A DNA stretch of 64,000 nucleotides from Kiritimatiellia bacterium (GCA_031552845.1 JAVBMC010000069.1:2874-66873); one strand, 5' to 3'; shown: positions 4,780-30,430, numbered from the stretch's first letter. The notes: generated from the sequence alone by a model not told the origin. Made by a program: numbers and translations.

Positions 4780-6156
4780 TTAGCGGTGGCTGTCATGGCG
4801 ATCAAAAAACCGCGTGAGGCCACCGTCAAAGTTTAACCTGATTTCACCTGTTGGGCCGTTACGCTGTTTGGCAACGTCGACAATCGCCAACAGTTCATCC
4901 CCGCATTCCTCATCTCCCGGATACTTGCACGGACGGCGCAACAATAATACCACATCGGCATCCTGCTCGATCGCACCGGAATCGCGCAGATCCGACAGCT
5001 TGGGCTTGCCCGTCTTGTTGCCGTGCTGTTCGGAGTTACGGCTCAACTGCGACAGCACAATCACCGGGATATTCAACTCTTTAGCCATCGCTTTGACATT
5101 GGCCGAGATCTGCGCCGTCTCAATCTGGCGCCCCTGCCGTGCAAACTCACGATGGTTCATCAGCTGAAGGTAATCGATCACAATCAGTTCGATGTTGTGC
5201 TTTTTCTTCATACGGCGTGCCCGTGCCCGCATTTCCATCACATCGATGCCGCCTGTATCGTCCACAAAGATAGGCGCCTTGGACAGCGTAGCCGCGCCCT
5301 GCGATAGCTGGTACATGATCTTATTCTGGTTGACCAGCCCCGCATCCAGCTGCCAACCCGCTACGCCGGAAACCCCGCAAAGCATACGCTGCGCCAGCGC
5401 TCCCTGGGACATTTCTACGCTGAACACACCCACCGCATGAGGCCGATCGTGTTCACCCTCAAACTTGTTGCCGTCCATATCGCGTCCCAAGGCCACACAT
5501 TCGGCAATGTTCATCGCCAAAGATGTTTTGCCCTGGGAGGGACGGGCTGCCAGCACGATCATTTCAGCCGGACGCAGCCCCTTCAGCTTTTTGTCGAGGT
5601 TCTTTAATCCCGTCGGTAGTCCCATCAGGCCATTGGGCTGTCCAAAGATTTTCTCAACATGTGTGATCGTTTCACGGACCGCACCGCTCCAACTAACACG
5701 TGCCTCGGTATTGTCGCCCAAAGCAAGAAAAGCCTGCTCGGCGTGCCCAAGAATCAGATCCGCACTCTCCACCTCATCGTAACACTCGCCCTCAGTCTTA
5801 CGAACCGCCGATAGGATAGAGCGCAGCAGGTGCTTTTGGCGAACGATGTCAATATAGTACTCCGCATGTGCCGATGTTGGCGTACGATCAATCAGCTCTT
5901 CGAGGAACCGCATGCCGCCCACTTCGTTCAGGCGTCCGTTGACAGATAGCCGCTCGACAAGCGTCACAAGGTCGACTGCCTGCATTCCGGCCATCATCTG
6001 TTGTATGGTCTTGAACAGTTCAGCGTGTGCCGGCACATAGAACGTTTCTGGGGTAAATCCCTTTTCAAGGCATAGATCCATCACCCGATTGGCATCGAGT
6101 AAGATGGATCCCAAAACACCACGTTCGGCTTCCAAGCTCTGGGGCGGCAGTCTCAT
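4780..6156 (-). CDS. dnaB: Replicative DNA helicase DnaB, full length
   Basis: PPQSLEAERGVLGSIL N-domain, Walker A ARPSQGKT, FSVEM, IVIDYLQL, LSQLSR, DLRDSGAIEQDAD, KQRNGPTG. Start at ATG 6156 after AAAGGAAA. Confidence 0.97.
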   Translation of the reverse strand: MRLPPQSLEAERGVLGSILLDANRVMDLCLEKGFTPETFYVPAHAELFKTIQQMMAGMQAVDLVTLVERLSVNGRLNEVGGMRFLEELIDRTPTSAHAEYYIDIVRQKHLLRSILSAVRKTEGECYDEVESADLILGHAEQAFLALGDNTEARVSWSGAVRETITHVEKIFGQPNGLMGLPTGLKNLDKKLKGLRPAEMIVLAARPSQGKTSLAMNIAECVALGRDMDGNKFEGEHDRPHAVGVFSVEMSQGALAQRMLCGVSGVAGWQLDAGLVNQNKIMYQLSQGAATLSKAPIFVDDTGGIDVMEMRARARRMKKKHNIELIVIDYLQLMNHREFARQGRQIETAQISANVKAMAKELNIPVIVLSQLSRNSEQHGNKTGKPKLSDLRDSGAIEQDADVVLLLRRPCKYPGDEECGDELLAIVDVAKQRNGPTGEIRLNFDGGLTRFFDRHDSHR

Positions 6157-6178
6157 TGGATTTCCTTTGTGTTGCATA

Positions 6179-14308: not shown

Positions 14309-14339
14309 AAAAAAAGCCGCCCCAGTGACGGGACGGCTT
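14309..14339 (-). terminator. Rho-independent terminator after the gpG-like gene
   Basis: Minus strand GCCGTCCC-GTCACT-GGGGCGGC followed by T7. Confidence 0.8.
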
Positions 14340-14364
14340 CGTTTTAAATTTGAAAGACGGTTGG

Positions 14365-14778
14365 TTATTTTAGCAGATGGTTCACCATCGCTTCAACTGC
14401 GTCTTGGATTACATCTAAGGCTTGTGGGGCGATTTCGCCACTCGTATCTACCGGGAAGTAAGGCCGTGCCGGGAGATTGCGTGGTTCATAGCCATAATTC
14501 TGTGCGCAGGCATACGGGCGGTCTGTGCCGACCGCGATTGCATCCACGCTCAAAGGTTCCAGTTGAAGGCTCTTACACAGCAGACCCTCTTTTTGGAGTG
14601 TTGCCTCCGAACCATCTTTCTTCGGCGGCCATGGTGTAAGGCGGCGTACAGGGTCAGTCCAAGACAGCTCCGATTCGCTTTGCAGTGCCATTCCAGACGC
14701 AATCAAGATCGGTGTTTTATCCCGCAGCTTGTAGATCAGCCGCGCCAGTTCCGGAGAAACTTCATCAATGAGGTTCAT
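14365..14778 (-). CDS. Virion morphogenesis protein, Mu gpG-like
   Basis: LQKEGLLCKSL, VGTDRPYACAQNYG and PARPYFP motifs. Confidence 0.85.
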   Translation of the reverse strand: MNLIDEVSPELARLIYKLRDKTPILIASGMALQSESELSWTDPVRRLTPWPPKKDGSEATLQKEGLLCKSLQLEPLSVDAIAVGTDRPYACAQNYGYEPRNLPARPYFPVDTSGEIAPQALDVIQDAVEAMVNHLLK

Positions 14779-15004
14779 CAGCCGATTCCTCCCGCAGCCA
14801 TTTCAAAATACGCGGCCACCGTTCCTCAGATGGAATCAGCCGACCCCGTGCCTCGTTCTCACGGTGCCACCGGTTCACTGCGTCAATCAATTCGCTCAGG
14901 CGGGCTGACTGCTCCGGTGTCGGACGCGTCTTGCCATCCGTGGGCAGATTCAGCTTGCGGACCTCCGCCTCAAATTCATCCTGGTCAATGATACGTTCGT
15001 CCAT
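14765..15004 (-). CDS. Small hypothetical protein downstream of MuF (candidate immunity protein)
   Basis: 79 aa, 2 nt after the MuF stop, overlaps the next gene. Confidence 0.6.
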   Translation of the reverse strand: MDERIIDQDEFEAEVRKLNLPTDGKTRPTPEQSARLSELIDAVNRWHRENEARGRLIPSEERWPRILKWLREESADEPH

Positions 15005-15006
15005 GG

Positions 15007-16158
15007 CTAAAATGTCCTTTTGATTTCAGTGTAACGGATGAGACCCGCATCTTCAAGCTTTTTAAGCGCGTCACGGTAGTTTTTTCGGAAGTGAGCCAAC
15101 AGCAGTACCATCTCATCGGCATCCAAGCGGATCGGTTCCAAAACCTCCACCACGCTGTACCGCGTCTCCCCCACCACCGTCAGCCGCTGGCAGGCATCGC
15201 TATTCGCCAGCGTGGTCGCCAGATCCTGCGGACTGACCAGATGGTCGCCGCCCGGATGATTGTGCAGCACCGCCATCCGCACCTGCGCCGCCCGCGCCAC
15301 GTCAAAGATGTTGCCTTCGCTCACGTAATCATTTGTGCCGTGGCTGCGGGCAACCACATCGCCTGTAGCATAATCCCGGGCAATCAGCCGTTCGGTCTTC
15401 AATCCCTTCACCTCCGCCAGATCCTTCCGGTCGTAATCCTGCCACAGCCAATCCCAAGCCGTCTGTTCAGGGTTGCCATACGTCTGCACCGGCGTCTTAC
15501 GCATCGCCGCACAAAAACACATCCACTCCGCAGGCAGATACTTTTCTTTCACCTGATCCAGATTCACCGTCAGGTTCTTCGGATGAAAGCCATACCCTGA
15601 CTTCGCTGGCGCTCCCGGTAGTTTACTCACGTCACACACGCCGCCCAAACCCTCAGCTTGCCTTTTTGTCAGCTGCGTAACCATGCAACGACACCCCCAT
15701 TCCCACGGCGGATAGTGAGTATCCCACCACGGATCATCCGCCGGAACAATCTTGCCGTCCAGCTCTTTATGCCCGTCACGCACCCTATCGTCATTCATGC
15801 AGCTATACCGCCAATACGGAAAAATAACAGCCATGTACTGTTGTTGCGAATACCGTCCGGCGGAATAAGCTTGAAAGCCGTTGACACGCAAAAGTAGCTC
15901 TGCCCGCGCCTTTGCGCCTTGCTGGTCGCCGCCGATCACAGCGGCAATACCGTTTTTGATTTTGCTCCAATCGCCCCCTGCTGGCAGCTCGGCAATCATA
16001 TCGCGGATCCGCGCTAACGCCTGCAAGTCCTCAATTCCGGATGCCGTGAAAGCGCGCACCTTCAACGCCGCTGGCAGTTGTCCGAATGCTTCCGGATTGA
16101 TTGCTGCCTTCCCGCGAATATAGCGGATGGCCACTTCATTATCGACTACGTCTAACAT
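15007..16158 (-). CDS. MuF (gp30) head morphogenesis protein with C-terminal JAB/JAMM-like domain
   Basis: MuF motifs DRVRDGH and YPPWEWGCRC; C-terminal HNHPGGDHLVSPQD matches HxHx7Sx2D. Confidence 0.85.
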   Translation of the reverse strand: MLDVVDNEVAIRYIRGKAAINPEAFGQLPAALKVRAFTASGIEDLQALARIRDMIAELPAGGDWSKIKNGIAAVIGGDQQGAKARAELLLRVNGFQAYSAGRYSQQQYMAVIFPYWRYSCMNDDRVRDGHKELDGKIVPADDPWWDTHYPPWEWGCRCMVTQLTKRQAEGLGGVCDVSKLPGAPAKSGYGFHPKNLTVNLDQVKEKYLPAEWMCFCAAMRKTPVQTYGNPEQTAWDWLWQDYDRKDLAEVKGLKTERLIARDYATGDVVARSHGTNDYVSEGNIFDVARAAQVRMAVLHNHPGGDHLVSPQDLATTLANSDACQRLTVVGETRYSVVEVLEPIRLDADEMVLLLAHFRKNYRDALKKLEDAGLIRYTEIKRTF

Positions 16159-16167
16159 TTATGCCTC

Positions 16168-16665
16168 CTATGCAGTGAATACGCCTACCTTACCAAGACC
16201 GCTTGCTTCCAATTGACGAAGTAAAGATGCCTCTTGCTCTGAAAATGCCACAAGGCACGATGGCGCATTGGCAGAATTGCCCTGTTGGCCGTCGACGTAA
16301 TGAAATCGAAGCCGCCCCTTAATAAACAAGATGGTTGCGCCAGCTTGAAAAATATCCTCTTGAAAGCCACGTGTTTCTGTCCGTGCAAAAATCAATGCCA
16401 ATCCACTGCCGCCTGTTTGGCAATGTTCACGGAGGCGTTTAATCCAGTTAAATGTTTCACGGTCATACGGCGGATTCAGCCACACGCGCCCAATCCACGG
16501 ATGCGCGAGGCCGTCCTCTTCTTTGGTGTAATGATATGTAGCCGTATCCCAAGGCCTGTTAATCGGCACACAGGGATCTAAGTCAAACTTACCAAGCTGT
16601 TTCAACAGGCTGGGCGGCGTAAGCCATTCGTCATTGTTCACAGTATTGGTATTAAAGTTTTTCAT
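16168..16665 (-). CDS. Phage DNA N6-adenine methyltransferase
   Basis: DEWLTP, FDLDPC, VWLNPPY, ALIFARTET and FIKGRLRF motifs. Start at ATG 16665. Confidence 0.85.
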   Translation of the reverse strand: MKNFNTNTVNNDEWLTPPSLLKQLGKFDLDPCVPINRPWDTATYHYTKEEDGLAHPWIGRVWLNPPYDRETFNWIKRLREHCQTGGSGLALIFARTETRGFQEDIFQAGATILFIKGRLRFHYVDGQQGNSANAPSCLVAFSEQEASLLRQLEASGLGKVGVFTA

Positions 16666-16666
16666 C

Positions 16667-17185
16667 CTATTCCTTCCGCTTCCATCCGCCCATGCCATTG
16701 GCCTCTAAGTAATGGCGCCGCTCATCGCCATCCTCATCCCAGAAATCCGGATCATCTGCACAGGCTGCCAGATGACGGAACCAACTGTCCAACTCCAACA
16801 ACCAACACCCCGGCGACACGTGGTGCATTTCGATATAACCGGCACGGTTCAACCGTTTCAATGTTTCATACTTCCGGCCTCGATCGAGATCACGAAAGCC
16901 AAGCTCTGTACAAAGGCTAATCGATAACCGAATATATTTGCCCCCCAGCGGGATCGGTACAAAGCCGCCTTCGTTTTTTTTCTCCACCCAACGGCAAAGC
17001 GTATAGGTTGGCGGCTGTTGACCATTCTTAGGCGTCCAGACAAGTTTATCCGGTGCAATTCGCACCATCACCGGCTCGGCCAACTCTCGGAACTTTTTTG
17101 AGGCCGCTTCCACATCGGGCGACTTTTTAGGTTTCACCTCCTCATCGCCATCCCAAAAGGTCTGTTGAACGATATTTTTACTCAT
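16667..17185 (-). CDS. Hypothetical protein (candidate late activator by position)
   Basis: ATG 17185 after GGAGG; near the end of the early operon; function inferred only. Confidence 0.55.
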   Translation of the reverse strand: MSKNIVQQTFWDGDEEVKPKKSPDVEAASKKFRELAEPVMVRIAPDKLVWTPKNGQQPPTYTLCRWVEKKNEGGFVPIPLGGKYIRLSISLCTELGFRDLDRGRKYETLKRLNRAGYIEMHHVSPGCWLLELDSWFRHLAACADDPDFWDEDGDERRHYLEANGMGGWKRKE

Positions 17186-27330: not shown

Positions 27331-28794
27331 TCAAGCCTTCTGCTGGGTTCCGTTGTAAGCGTAAACCGTCAGCGCCTGTTCCAACAACTCCGCCGAATCA
27401 TTCCGCCCGTTGCCTTCCGCCCAGGCGCGGACGCGTCTAATGCAATCTTCCGGCGAGGTCGACGCCGTGATCAATGCTTGTAGCTCTTTGTAACGCTCGC
27501 CCAGCGCCGCCGCCAGCTTGTCGGTGTGTTTCGCCTCCACTGGATCCGCTGGAGCATTGAGCGGTAAGGCCGACAGCCCGCCAAAGGGTGAAGGCGAAGG
27601 CGATGCCTTCCGCCGGATCGTGAAGCCCACACGTTCCCCCAACGCATCCAGTCCATCATCATCCGGCTCGAATCCTGCGGCGCCGAGCTTGGCCACTACA
27701 TTCATGGCGGCGTTGAGTTCCGCAGCCGAATCAGTCCCGAACAGAATCAGCGGTGTTTTACCGGGCAAGGCGTTGATTTGACAGAGCTGCTGAAACAGCC
27801 CGCCGCGGATTGTTGCCGCCAACATCTTGGCATCCATCTTCCGCAGATCCTCACGAACCTCGCCTTGCAGGTTAGCCGTGCCGCCGCCCAGTTCGCCAGT
27901 TGGCTGTGCTTGGCCGGATAGCGTTTGACCGACAATCAACTTGGAAATCTCGCGGTTGCACAGTTCGATAAACCGTTCATGACTGTTCGAGGTGTCTCCG
28001 GTGGCGGCTTGGATAATCTCGACCTCGGTCTTTTTGTTGATCACGATTGCACCCAGCCTAACCGCCGTTTGGAATGCCCGTGTCAAAACGCCGCGCCCGG
28101 CATCGTCGCCAACGTCGAACTTTCCAACCATAAACGGCACGCCGAACCGCTCAATGAAGTCCGCCCACCACTGCCGGGACATCGTCCGCAACAACCACCA
28201 AAAGAGCAGCGCCCGCATCGGCCCACCCCAATTATCCGGCGTGGGCATGAGGTGGCCACGGTGAACAATATACCGCGCCGGATCCGGCACGTGTGACGTT
28301 GACAGCGGCCTGCCGTTTGCGTCCGTATCAAAGATGCGCAAAGCCCCGCTGGAATAATCCAACAGTTGATACGGCACTGACACAATATCCTTCAACGTGT
28401 AACCTGTGGCCGTTGTGGCGTAAACTTTCTCCACCACCGCCACCGGGTAAAGCGTGGCATTGAGCAGCCAAGATACCATGTTGACAAATGCCGTGCTGTC
28501 TGTGATCACAAAGCAGAGGTCTTTCGTGGCCAAGTCTGCCGGATTGCGTTTATCCCAGGGAACCACGGTGGCACCATCCCCCAGAATCGCCGCTTTGCGT
28601 TTGGTAAACTCAGTCAGAATCTGGTTGTCAGATGCCACGACATCGCGGTAAAGTGCGAACAGTTCGCGGGTATCTCCGGCCTCCGCTTGCCGGATGATGC
28701 TCATAAGCCGGTCAGCCGACAAGGCAGGCAATACGCTGGCGGGTTCATAGGCAGGGTTGAGAATGGTAATTGGATCTTCGGGTTGTGGTTTCAT
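27331..28794 (-). CDS. Portal protein, Mu gp29/DUF935-like
   Basis: WWADFIERFGVPF.VGK, EISKLIVGQTLS and REDLRKMDA motifs. Start at ATG 28794. Confidence 0.9.
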   Translation of the reverse strand: MKPQPEDPITILNPAYEPASVLPALSADRLMSIIRQAEAGDTRELFALYRDVVASDNQILTEFTKRKAAILGDGATVVPWDKRNPADLATKDLCFVITDSTAFVNMVSWLLNATLYPVAVVEKVYATTATGYTLKDIVSVPYQLLDYSSGALRIFDTDANGRPLSTSHVPDPARYIVHRGHLMPTPDNWGGPMRALLFWWLLRTMSRQWWADFIERFGVPFMVGKFDVGDDAGRGVLTRAFQTAVRLGAIVINKKTEVEIIQAATGDTSNSHERFIELCNREISKLIVGQTLSGQAQPTGELGGGTANLQGEVREDLRKMDAKMLAATIRGGLFQQLCQINALPGKTPLILFGTDSAAELNAAMNVVAKLGAAGFEPDDDGLDALGERVGFTIRRKASPSPSPFGGLSALPLNAPADPVEAKHTDKLAAALGERYKELQALITASTSPEDCIRRVRAWAEGNGRNDSAELLEQALTVYAYNGTQQKA

Positions 28795-28801
28795 GTTACT
28801 C

Positions 28802-30430
28802 CTATGCGTAAAAGGTAGAGGTGGCGGCAGGGTCATCATCGGTTGGACGTAGCGGCATCCGATCAGGCGCGGAACCTCCGCTGGTTGGGTGAGCCGTGCG
28901 CATGCCGAGCGGAACTGCCTCGGCTTCCGCCGGACCGCTCGCCGCCGTCAGCGAATAGATCGAGTTTTTCCACGCATCGAACAAATCGCCGTGCCGTCCG
29001 GTGGCGGTATCCAAGACATTATCAAAGCCACCTTTGAACCGCCGCACTAGGCGGAAGTCATCTTTAACCTCATTGGACGCCGGGATGGCTGCCGTCTGGT
29101 CTTCAAAGGGATTGGTGCCAAGGTGCCCCAGATACGATTTGAACAGGATGCGCTCACCGTTGTATTCGATTCGCTCCGAAGCCTTCACAAGGATAACTTC
29201 GCAGATGCCTTGCAATTCCTGTTTGACCTCGGCGCACCAGTAGGTTTCCCCTGTGGCGTCAAGCGTGATTGCCTCCGGTTTCAAGCGCTGCGCCAGTTCT
29301 TTCAAGATAGCCTTGGGCTTTCGCGGATCCGCAGACTTCATCGACAGAATCAGCTTGGCAACATACACGCCATCAATCCGCTGTGTGACGCAAATGCCAA
29401 AGGGATTGGAGGTCTCGCCATCGGTTGTGGCCGGATCGCCGCCGATCCCGATGGGCGCGCCCGGCTTGAACAGGCTTGCCCATTCTTCCGGCAAATCATC
29501 CTTCGCATAAACACACCCCAGACGTTCCCCTGCCTGCTGGGCATCGAGCAAGGCCATTAAACCAATCGCTGCGGATCCGCCCGTAACGAAGATGCACCCG
29601 TAGTTACGATCCCACGCCTCTTTGTCATAAGCCATACGCCTGGACTCTGCCGGGGACATTGGCTTACCCGTCTTTAGATCATACAAGGGCACGTTGTCAG
29701 CGTAAGCGTCAAAAGCGTCCACCCGCAACACAGTAACGCCTTTGACAGACTCATAAATGTTGCCTTCCGGATTGACTCCAAAGATCGTGCCCGGCGGCGG
29801 CGCCAGCTGTTCAAACGAATAGTGGGTATCATCCGGTGGTGGCGTGGTCGAAAGTAGCAGCCTAAACTCCGGATTGCTGGACACAATCGGTTCGATCGCT
29901 TCCCACGTCTCGCGCCAGTTCCCGATACGGCCAACTTCGTCCGCCATCAGATCGCCCGTTTCACCAACGGTATCAGGCCGTAGCGCAACCACTTTGGTAC
30001 GGCTGTATCGGTTCCTGTCATGGTAGTAACGGAACTCCAATCGCGAAGCCTCGAATAACTCCGCAAAATCATCATGCGTCAATCGATCAGGAATCCGCCC
30101 ATCCCGTGCATCCGCCACCAACAGCTTGCCGGTCTTGGCACGGCGAATAGCTTCAGCAATAGCGCTTTCAATTACCGACGATTCCTTGCGAACGATTTCC
30201 CGTGATAGATTCAGCTTGGCGCTACCAAAGATTACCGTGTGGTCTTTTCGGCGCATCATCTTACTCATGGCTATATTGCCAAAGGTGGTTGTCTTGCCAA
30301 ATTGCCGACGTGCCAAAAATGCCAGCAGTCGAATATCTTCCACCAGCTCAAAGACACGCCTTTGACCGGCTCGCATCTGAATGAGTGGGCGCTGCTCGAC
30401 AATCTCAAGTTGACCTATTGACTTTTCCAT
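28802..30430 (-). CDS. Terminase large subunit, Mu gp28-like
   Basis: RRQFGKTT Walker A, LMADEVG Walker B, LLSTTP, IGGD, LDATG and HGDLF nuclease motifs. Confidence 0.9.
   Translation of the reverse strand: MEKSIGQLEIVEQRPLIQMRAGQRRVFELVEDIRLLAFLARRQFGKTTTFGNIAMSKMMRRKDHTVIFGSAKLNLSREIVRKESSVIESAIAEAIRRAKTGKLLVADARDGRIPDRLTHDDFAELFEASRLEFRYYHDRNRYSRTKVVALRPDTVGETGDLMADEVGRIGNWRETWEAIEPIVSSNPEFRLLLSTTPPPDDTHYSFEQLAPPPGTIFGVNPEGNIYESVKGVTVLRVDAFDAYADNVPLYDLKTGKPMSPAESRRMAYDKEAWDRNYGCIFVTGGSAAIGLMALLDAQQAGERLGCVYAKDDLPEEWASLFKPGAPIGIGGDPATTDGETSNPFGICVTQRIDGVYVAKLILSMKSADPRKPKAILKELAQRLKPEAITLDATGETYWCAEVKQELQGICEVILVKASERIEYNGERILFKSYLGHLGTNPFEDQTAAIPASNEVKDDFRLVRRFKGGFDNVLDTATGRHGDLFDAWKNSIYSLTAASGPAEAEAVPLGMRTAHPTSGGSAPDRMPLRPTDDDPAATSTFYA

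Follow-up and report, generated by a model that had tools for sequence, protein, structure and literature searches.

This report concerns two adjacent genes in a 64,000-nucleotide stretch of DNA from a gut Kiritimatiellia bacterium (GCA_031552845.1, JAVBMC010000069.1:2874-66873), referred to below as the window, which is contig 16 of a 2.98-Mb, 83-contig genome. The larger gene encodes a protein in which a MuF head-protein part is joined to a C-terminal JAB/JAMM module, and the smaller, directly downstream, is an open reading frame (ORF) of 79 amino acids (aa). An earlier note on this DNA, made from the sequence alone, had proposed that the two form a toxin-immunity pair or that the module counters ubiquitin-like conjugation defences of the host. 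The features of the pair, in window coordinates, are as follows.

15007..16158, minus strand: MuF-JAB fusion gene (383 aa, P0001), from the ORF listing, Pfam, PHROGs and an AlphaFold2 (AF2) model
15454..16158, minus strand: conserved MuF part (associated with capsid and portal), residues 1-235, common to tail-less and other-tailed relatives
15679-15963, minus strand: Pfam MuF core, residues 66-160, from Pfam Phage_Mu_F
15445..15462, minus strand: junction motif T-A-W-D-W-L, residues 233-238, from alignments; C-terminal modules diverge beyond it
15010..15453, minus strand: RadC-like JAB/JAMM module, residues 236-383, from Pfam, profile comparison with the PDB, Foldseek and hhalign
15391..15393, minus strand: codon of the catalytic Glu256 (in KTERLIA), from its invariance in seven MuF-JAB clusters
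15223..15264, minus strand: JAMM motif HNHPGGDHLVSPQD, residues 299-312 (H299, H301, S309, D312), from the alignment and a motif scan of the window
14765..15004, minus strand: cognate partner ORF of 79 aa (P0045), predicted three-helix protein, from a homolog in locus L039, AF2 and cassette statistics

The MuF-JAB gene stops with a TAG at 15007-15009, and only two nucleotides (CC) separate this codon from the ATG of the 79-aa ORF, as the earlier note had stated.

A MuF scaffold with exchangeable tails

Sequence comparison assigns the larger gene to the MuF-family minor head proteins of a Mu-like prophage, in agreement with the earlier note. Pfam Phage_Mu_F (PF04233) matches residues 66-160 with an E value of 8e-22 (78.6 bits against a cut-off of 29.6), TIGR01641 matches at 49.7 bits against a cut-off of 39.65, and PHROG 220, annotated 'minor head protein and DNA pilot', matches with an E value of 4e-40. 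Fold matches of the MuF part in BFVD are likewise MuF minor capsid proteins.

What follows this scaffold varies among relatives. The nearest N-terminal relatives (about 50% identity) are 236-239 aa long and stop at a T-x-W-D-W-L junction. The same junction precedes these tail-less ends, a PI3/PI4-kinase-like domain in P0010 and P0013, a HEIGH zincin-type tail with a weak LPD1 match in P0016 and P0023, and the JAB tails. W235 of the junction motif is invariant in the alignments, and the standalone protein P0055 starts with this motif.

The C-terminal module resembles RadC and keeps a complete JAMM site

Beyond the shared MuF part, the tail measures 148 aa (residues 236-383), close to the roughly 140-aa extension described in the earlier note. 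The sequence HNHPGGDHLVSPQD is an exact HxHx7Sx2D motif, also recognized earlier, and is its single occurrence across the six frames of the window; shuffling the protein 200,000 times produced the pattern in 82 cases. The module is rare: when 1.84 billion representative proteins were searched exhaustively with phmmer, only about nine true relatives came out, comprising six further MuF fusions (P0007, P0051, P0056, P0057, P0059 and P0060) and three free-standing proteins of 147-212 aa; P0052 and P0058, also returned by this search, were set aside as repeat-protein false positives. A word-indexed homolog search with the C-terminal region alone found only the protein itself, and a pattern scan of IMG/VR with the JAB-module alignment gave no match. 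Across the seven MuF-JAB clusters, which share 33-41% identity, no variation is seen at W235, E256, G274, H299, H301, P302, G304, S309 and D312. The JAMM site therefore keeps all five of its catalytic positions (E256, H299, H301, S309 and D312), including the upstream glutamate in KTERLIA that the earlier note had singled out.

Several lines of evidence place the module closest to RadC. The Pfam RadC model matches the module alone with an E value of 5e-4 at 20.3 bits, narrowly below its gathering cut-off of 22.1, and we treat the module as RadC-like rather than as a member of RadC (PF04002). At E <= 1, Pfam returned for the module only RadC and a weak winged helix-turn-helix (wHTH) match, and none of the toxin JAB families. 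A profile built from the module placed RadC (2qlc) at the top of its PDB matches (E 0.003), followed by Rpn11, CSN5 and the JAB protein of Citrobacter BubCD; the profile was needed for this, as searching the PDB with the module's single sequence yielded nothing but noise. The AF2 model, made with the module alignment as input, has a mean predicted local distance difference test (pLDDT) score of 82.7 and a predicted TM-score of 0.73, with means over 10-residue blocks of the module mostly between 79 and 92. Its best Foldseek match in the PDB is again RadC 2qlc (probability 1.00, TM 0.51-0.55 on the target), followed by BubCD, AMSH/Sst2 and Prp8-Jab1, and the top 14 PDB matches are all JAB/MPN proteins. 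Comparison of the module profile with E. coli YeeS, a RadC-like JAB protein, by hhalign gave a probability of 92%. The C-terminus is thus modelled as an MPN/JAB fold with a complete JAMM site; an MPN fold is what the earlier note had expected here, and the profile search and Foldseek both recover it.

The end of the module (residues 347-383, 15010-15120) forms a helix-helix-strand unit with a conserved L-x-x-L-x-x-x-G-x-I-x-Y element, in which L365 and L368 are invariant. It has a weak match to a GMT-like wHTH (E 0.02), and may be a small nucleic-acid-binding winged-helix remnant.

A complete JAMM site could also belong to an isopeptidase that resembles deubiquitinases, is delivered by the virion and removes the ubiquitin-like conjugates formed by host defences such as Cap2 of CBASS (an anti-phage system that signals through cyclic oligonucleotides) or Bil/Bub, in which case the small ORF would encode a regulator. 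The occurrence of AMSH/Sst2, Rpn11, CSN5 and the JAB protein of the bacterial ubiquitination operon BubCD among the fold and profile matches is consistent with this explanation, as are two relatives that score slightly higher on Prok-JAB than on RadC. The top matches in both sequence and structure are nevertheless RadC, and the residues that line the ubiquitin-tail tunnel are reported to be missing from RadC-like and toxin JAB clades (PMC3482391, PMC5512222). No ubiquitin-like, E1 or E2 gene lies nearby, and the host genome, which is 93% complete, has no SMODS/CBASS cyclase and no Prok-JAB match above cut-off; a ThiF search of this genome returned only two ordinary ThiF-family genes, which have no bearing either way. 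Because of the RadC affinity and these absences from the neighbourhood and the host, we consider a deubiquitinase-like role unlikely, and the earlier suggestion of a counter to ubiquitin-like conjugation (CBASS Cap2/Cap3, Bil) finds no support.

A small partner gene accompanies the JAB module

The comparison covered 102 dereplicated MuF relatives from genome and IMG/VR scans. A partner-type ORF lies behind 17 of the 18 JAB-bearing MuF genes and behind none of the 84 others (Fisher p 2e-18, phylogeny ignored). The ORFs found behind zincin-tailed, kinase-tailed and tail-less MuF genes are unrelated to any partner group. We also considered whether tail-less relatives carry the JAB domain as a separate downstream gene, and rejected this, as the ORFs after MuF in L002 are unrelated. 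JAB-bearing MuF genes are typically followed by an ORF of 61-102 aa before gpG, usually via a 4-nt ATGA overlap. In all but one of the inspected JAB-bearing genes the small ORF overlaps the JAB gene or begins a few nucleotides behind it, which suggests translational coupling.

The 79-aa ORF itself matched only itself in a word-indexed search of 5.8 billion proteins. Its homolog, found by reading the loci of JAB relatives, lies behind P0051, the closest JAB relative (locus L039), with 41% identity over 49 aa and a pairwise E value of 4e-8. These two ORFs constitute partner group B, whose alignment gave no match in a pattern scan of the metagenome collection. Groups C and D are related to each other, and members of group A, the commonest, share a conserved, almost invariant C-terminal tail (...DPGPWEMPPVPEGVEP). 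The partner groups track the JAB clades. Partner ORFs match no Pfam, PHROG or NCBIfam family, no known immunity family and, at a significant level, no PDB fold; AF2 models the window's partner as a three-helix protein (pLDDT 73). Values of dN/dS between 0.07 and 0.25 point to purifying selection on the group-A partners.

These results bear on two further explanations. One is that the 79-aa ORF is filler or a moron, functionally unconnected with the JAB module: assorted small ORFs occupy the MuF-gpG junction even in tail-less relatives, and this ORF was unmatched among the 5.8 billion proteins. That seems very improbable given the homolog behind the nearest JAB relative, the correspondence of partner type with JAB clade at 17/18 versus 0/84, the purifying selection on group A and the small ORFs that also follow free JAB genes (see below). 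The comparative evidence instead indicates that the 79-aa ORF is a real gene linked to the module.

Alternatively, the small protein could be a substrate or co-effector, either trimmed by the JAB module (for example, at the Pro/Trp-rich tail of group A) or delivered together with it. JAB enzymes classically cut the C-termini of small proteins, the almost invariant end of the commonest partner group would offer such a site, and the tight gene spacing fits any 1:1 complex. However, the window's own partner does not have the ...DPGPWEMPPVPEGVEP tail, the partners are predicted to be helical rather than beta-grasp proteins, and their sequences differ wholly between groups, which is more typical of an immunity protein or inhibitor than of a conserved substrate. 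We therefore regard a substrate or co-effector as improbable.

The module and its partner behave as a mobile cassette

On a tree of 146 MuF N-terminal regions, presence of the JAB tail requires 8 gains or losses, at least 5 of which are forced by well-supported branches. The window's MuF falls in a clade of otherwise tail-less MuF proteins with a Shimodaira-Hasegawa-like approximate likelihood ratio test (SH-aLRT) support of 97. The JAB tail is polyphyletic on this tree, and the module has therefore moved between MuF lineages.

Three free-standing JAB genes occur on chromosomes in non-phage settings, each with a small ORF directly behind it. The first lies between a type II secretion/type IV pilus (T2SS/T4P) ATPase gene and rplQ-rpoA (L031), and its small ORF matched no partner group; the second lies between GH5-like and Sel1-repeat genes (L030), and its small ORF matches group A; the third adjoins an MmeI-type fragment (L040), and its small ORF matches group C. 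Taken together with the tree, these loci suggest a two-gene cassette of JAB module and small partner, one that recombination has placed on different MuF lineages and that also occurs on its own on chromosomes.

Two of these islands, at 4311-5121 of L031 (G011:C43) and 4516-5318 of L030 (G030:C6), stand in ordinary chromosomal surroundings. Both resemble orphan toxin-immunity or toxin-antitoxin-like modules. A decayed prophage (L032, G038:C19, 4955-5535) holds a truncated JAB gene, an intact group-A partner and a truncated gpG; its 130-aa ORF joins the first approximately 24 MuF residues straight to the JAB half with the HxH motif.

Other tails were seen on related scaffolds. The kinase-tailed MuF of L042 (3501-5365, P0013; PF00454 E 1e-9) is followed by an unrelated 80-aa ORF, and its PI3/PI4-kinase-like tail is another unreported-looking MuF cargo. 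At the zincin-tailed locus L041 (2465-3508), a tyrosine-integrase gene (Phage_integrase) lies directly upstream of MuF and replaces Dam. Some Verrucomicrobiota relatives of MuF are 1,050-1,180 aa long (L053, L054, L057, L059, L071, L079, L085 and L087, from Opitutales, Verrucomicrobia and Geminisphaera); these are probably large polyvalent proteins.

Genomic setting in a Mu-like head module

The pair is embedded in a compact set of prophage genes, of which the immediate neighbours are the following.

14365..14778, minus strand: gpG-like virion morphogenesis gene (Phage_tail_S E 1e-3, PHROG 26 E 1.5e-7)
14313..14340, minus strand: terminator-like hairpin, 12-bp stem and T run, closing the Dam / MuF-JAB / partner / gpG unit
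16168..16698, minus strand: Dam-type DNA methyltransferase gene (Pfam Dam E 1e-13, PHROG 111)

Only 9 nt separate the end of the Dam gene from the start of MuF, the stop of the 79-aa ORF and the start of the gpG-like gene overlap by 14 nt, and the hairpin 3' of gpG is a strong terminator candidate. A scan for sigma-70 promoters around these genes gave a signal no better than chance. The gpG-like gene holds the same position in all relatives. Directly after it, Pfam and PHROGs identify genes for a Mu gpI-type protease/scaffold protein and for a gpT major capsid protein, which places MuF within the head morphogenesis module. Upstream of Dam, the early region is Mu-like and includes genes for Gam, a MuB-like ATPase and a putative transposase, as well as a ParB-like gene and a helix-turn-helix regulator.

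The JAB tail and small ORF belong to the head module, at the MuF-gpG boundary, and share a transcription unit with these genes, and so might act in head assembly, processing a capsid component as structural rather than conflict genes. Against this, the closest MuF relatives (about 50% identity) have neither tail nor partner and others carry kinase-like or zincin modules instead, the JAB tail is polyphyletic on the MuF tree, the same cassette stands free in non-phage chromosomal sites, and a Mu gpI-type protease is already present. A role in assembly is thus quite improbable.

The Mu-type portal gene is not adjacent to MuF and lies at 27331-28839. Plus-strand genes and the whole early/transposition region separate the portal and terminase (28802-30430) genes from MuF. 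The order of early genes (MuB, Gam) followed by MuF, gpG, protease and capsid is also found in L002, L033, L037, L039 and L042. Because this order recurs in relatives, we take it to be a trait of the lineage, and a nested second prophage between MuF and the portal was dropped as unnecessary. A full-length DnaB-type replicative helicase gene (4780-6177; DnaB_C E 7e-86) lies amid the presumed tail genes of the prophage.

JAB-bearing MuF genes are found in metagenome-assembled genomes (MAGs) labelled Kiritimatiellia/Kiritimatiellae, Verrucomicrobia and Lentisphaerae, many of them from ruminant guts, and on IMG/VR contigs. One is on a 31,176-bp contig of a sheep-rectum Kiritimatiellae MAG (L049, JAFXIL010000122.1), whose encoded proteins match G232:C74, from a genome of the same order as that of the window. 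Coverage of the MuF-JAB protein does not exceed 57% in any INPHARED phage record, and the JAB tail is thus absent from deposited phages.

A proposed effector and its cognate inhibitor

In the MuF relatives the delivery domain is conserved, the junction is sharp, and the C-terminal enzymes are unrelated and accompanied by small downstream genes of their own. Such a combination is how polymorphic toxin/immunity systems are recognised, and it leads us to favour, with moderate confidence, a MuF-anchored RadC-like JAB effector that is delivered by the virion and held in check by a cognate small inhibitor. This proposal builds on the observed architecture, fold, catalytic conservation, operon structure, and co-variation and shuffling of the cassette, and from these we infer packaging, delivery, activity and inhibition by the partner. 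Entry into the capsid is known for SPP1 gp7 and has been proposed for MuF toxins and polyvalent proteins. By analogy with SPP1 gp7 and Mu gp30 biology, and with the interpretation in PMC5512222, packaging and delivery would be expected here as well.

In outline, a single compact transcription unit would yield the MuF-JAB protein along with its partner, and in the producing cell the three-helix partner would bind the JAB module and silence it. The MuF part would then take the enzyme into the capsid, from which it would be ejected with the DNA into the next cell. Freed of its partner, the enzyme could hydrolyse a host target, either aiding takeover or harming the cell. Because of the RadC affinity, this target is more likely to be a nucleic-acid or nucleotide-linked substrate, or another defence component, than a ubiquitin-like conjugate.

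The toxin-immunity pair suggested in the earlier note holds up in part. A JAB module and a small ORF that co-vary on a polymorphic MuF scaffold are the comparative signature of an effector/immunity cassette. Immunity of the lysogen fits less well: since the partner shares a unit with MuF and gpG, its most likely task is to hold the enzyme inactive in the producing cell, and not to protect lysogens.

Several points weigh against the effector-inhibitor proposal. From its place in the MuF/gpG transcription unit, the partner may not be expressed in lysogens and would not then provide classical lysogen immunity. The partner hidden Markov models were built in part from loci that are in the tally, the Fisher test takes no account of phylogeny, and the one exception, the JAB-bearing MuF gene of L131, lacks a neighbouring small ORF. 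The window's partner type has one known homolog only, and profile comparison detects no homology among partner groups A, B and C; the comparisons thus support conserved position and co-variation rather than a single partner family. The sub-threshold Pfam RadC score is a further point, as is the fact that no biochemical function has been established for JAB domains of the RadC clade (PMC11981726).

The proposal has consequences beyond this locus. MuF-anchored cargo is among the few routes thought to let tailed phages inject enzymes with their DNA, and the catalogue of such cargo shows which host processes phages attack first. A JAB/RadC cargo with an obligatory partner would be a new enzyme class for that catalogue, in gut and environmental Kiritimatiellia/Verrucomicrobiota, a phylum for which very little is known of phage biology. 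Mobile elements very commonly carry RadC-like JAB proteins, for which no activity is known, and a compact enzyme-plus-partner pair whose comparative signature is clear offers a practical system for finding one. It is possible, though we suggest this only tentatively, that RadC-clade JAB domains of mobile elements are generally effectors checked by small, fast-evolving partners (ORFs of 61-110 aa, possibly including DUF987 beside YeeS/YkfG/YfjY in E. coli). If so, the MuF cassette would provide a tractable entry to RadC-like activity, as an injected enzyme acting on host nucleic acid or a defence component.

Comparison with known systems

MuF is a described scaffold for polymorphic toxin/immunity systems (PMC3482391, PMC5576092), and a small ORF usually lies behind MuF toxins (Jamet et al. 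2017, PMC5576092). Like these systems, the locus described here lies in a prophage, has a MuF N-terminus ahead of a variable C-terminal enzyme that recombination exchanges, and carries a small ORF immediately downstream. It differs in its JAB/RadC cargo, in partners that fall outside known immunity families and in its Kiritimatiellia/Verrucomicrobiota host, and its toxicity is a prediction. Neither Jamet 2017 (PMC5576092) nor Zhang 2012 (PMC3482391) includes JAB/RadC in its list of MuF cargo.

Enzymes fused to MuF have been interpreted as effectors that are packaged in the head and injected with DNA, and RadC-clade JAB domains with a predicted nucleic-acid or nucleotide substrate occur in polyvalent proteins (Iyer et al. 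2017, PMC5512222). As in those proteins, a RadC-like JAB is joined here to a domain that marks proteins co-delivered with DNA, among virion genes. The MuF-JAB protein is, however, a minimal two-domain form, and its obligatory small partner gene is not part of that paper's account.

Two other toxin JAB clades with immunity proteins have been argued, like RadC, to be without the ubiquitin-tail tunnel, and a RadC-like action, not deubiquitination, is predicted for them (Zhang et al. 2012, PMC3482391). They too are divergent JAB domains with E, HxH, S and D that serve as C-terminal cargo and have a cognate immunity gene. Their delivery is by RHS proteins or type VI or type VII secretion rather than by MuF, their Pfam families do not match the module at E <= 1, and their partners are different. 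The JAB deubiquitinases of CBASS (Cap3) and Bil/Bub share the JAMM motif and MPN fold, and BubCD is among the fold matches; the module described here has no linked genes for E1, E2 or ubiquitin-like proteins, is closer to RadC and occurs in a virion protein.

RadC (2qlc) and YeeS are the nearest relatives of the module in sequence and fold, although the alignment is limited to the core around the motif, and cellular RadC has an N-terminal helix-hairpin-helix part that is absent from MuF-JAB. In the cryptic prophage CP4-44 of E. coli K-12 (L090, 4309-5039), yeeS is followed by yeeT, a 73-aa DUF987 gene, and then by cbeA/cbtA. A RadC-like gene followed by an ORF of about 70 aa is thus a likeness to the present pair; profile comparison of YeeT with group A, the only partner group compared, detected no homology. 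Set against all of these systems, what appears to be new here is a JAB/RadC class of cargo, together with new partner families, on the known MuF delivery system.

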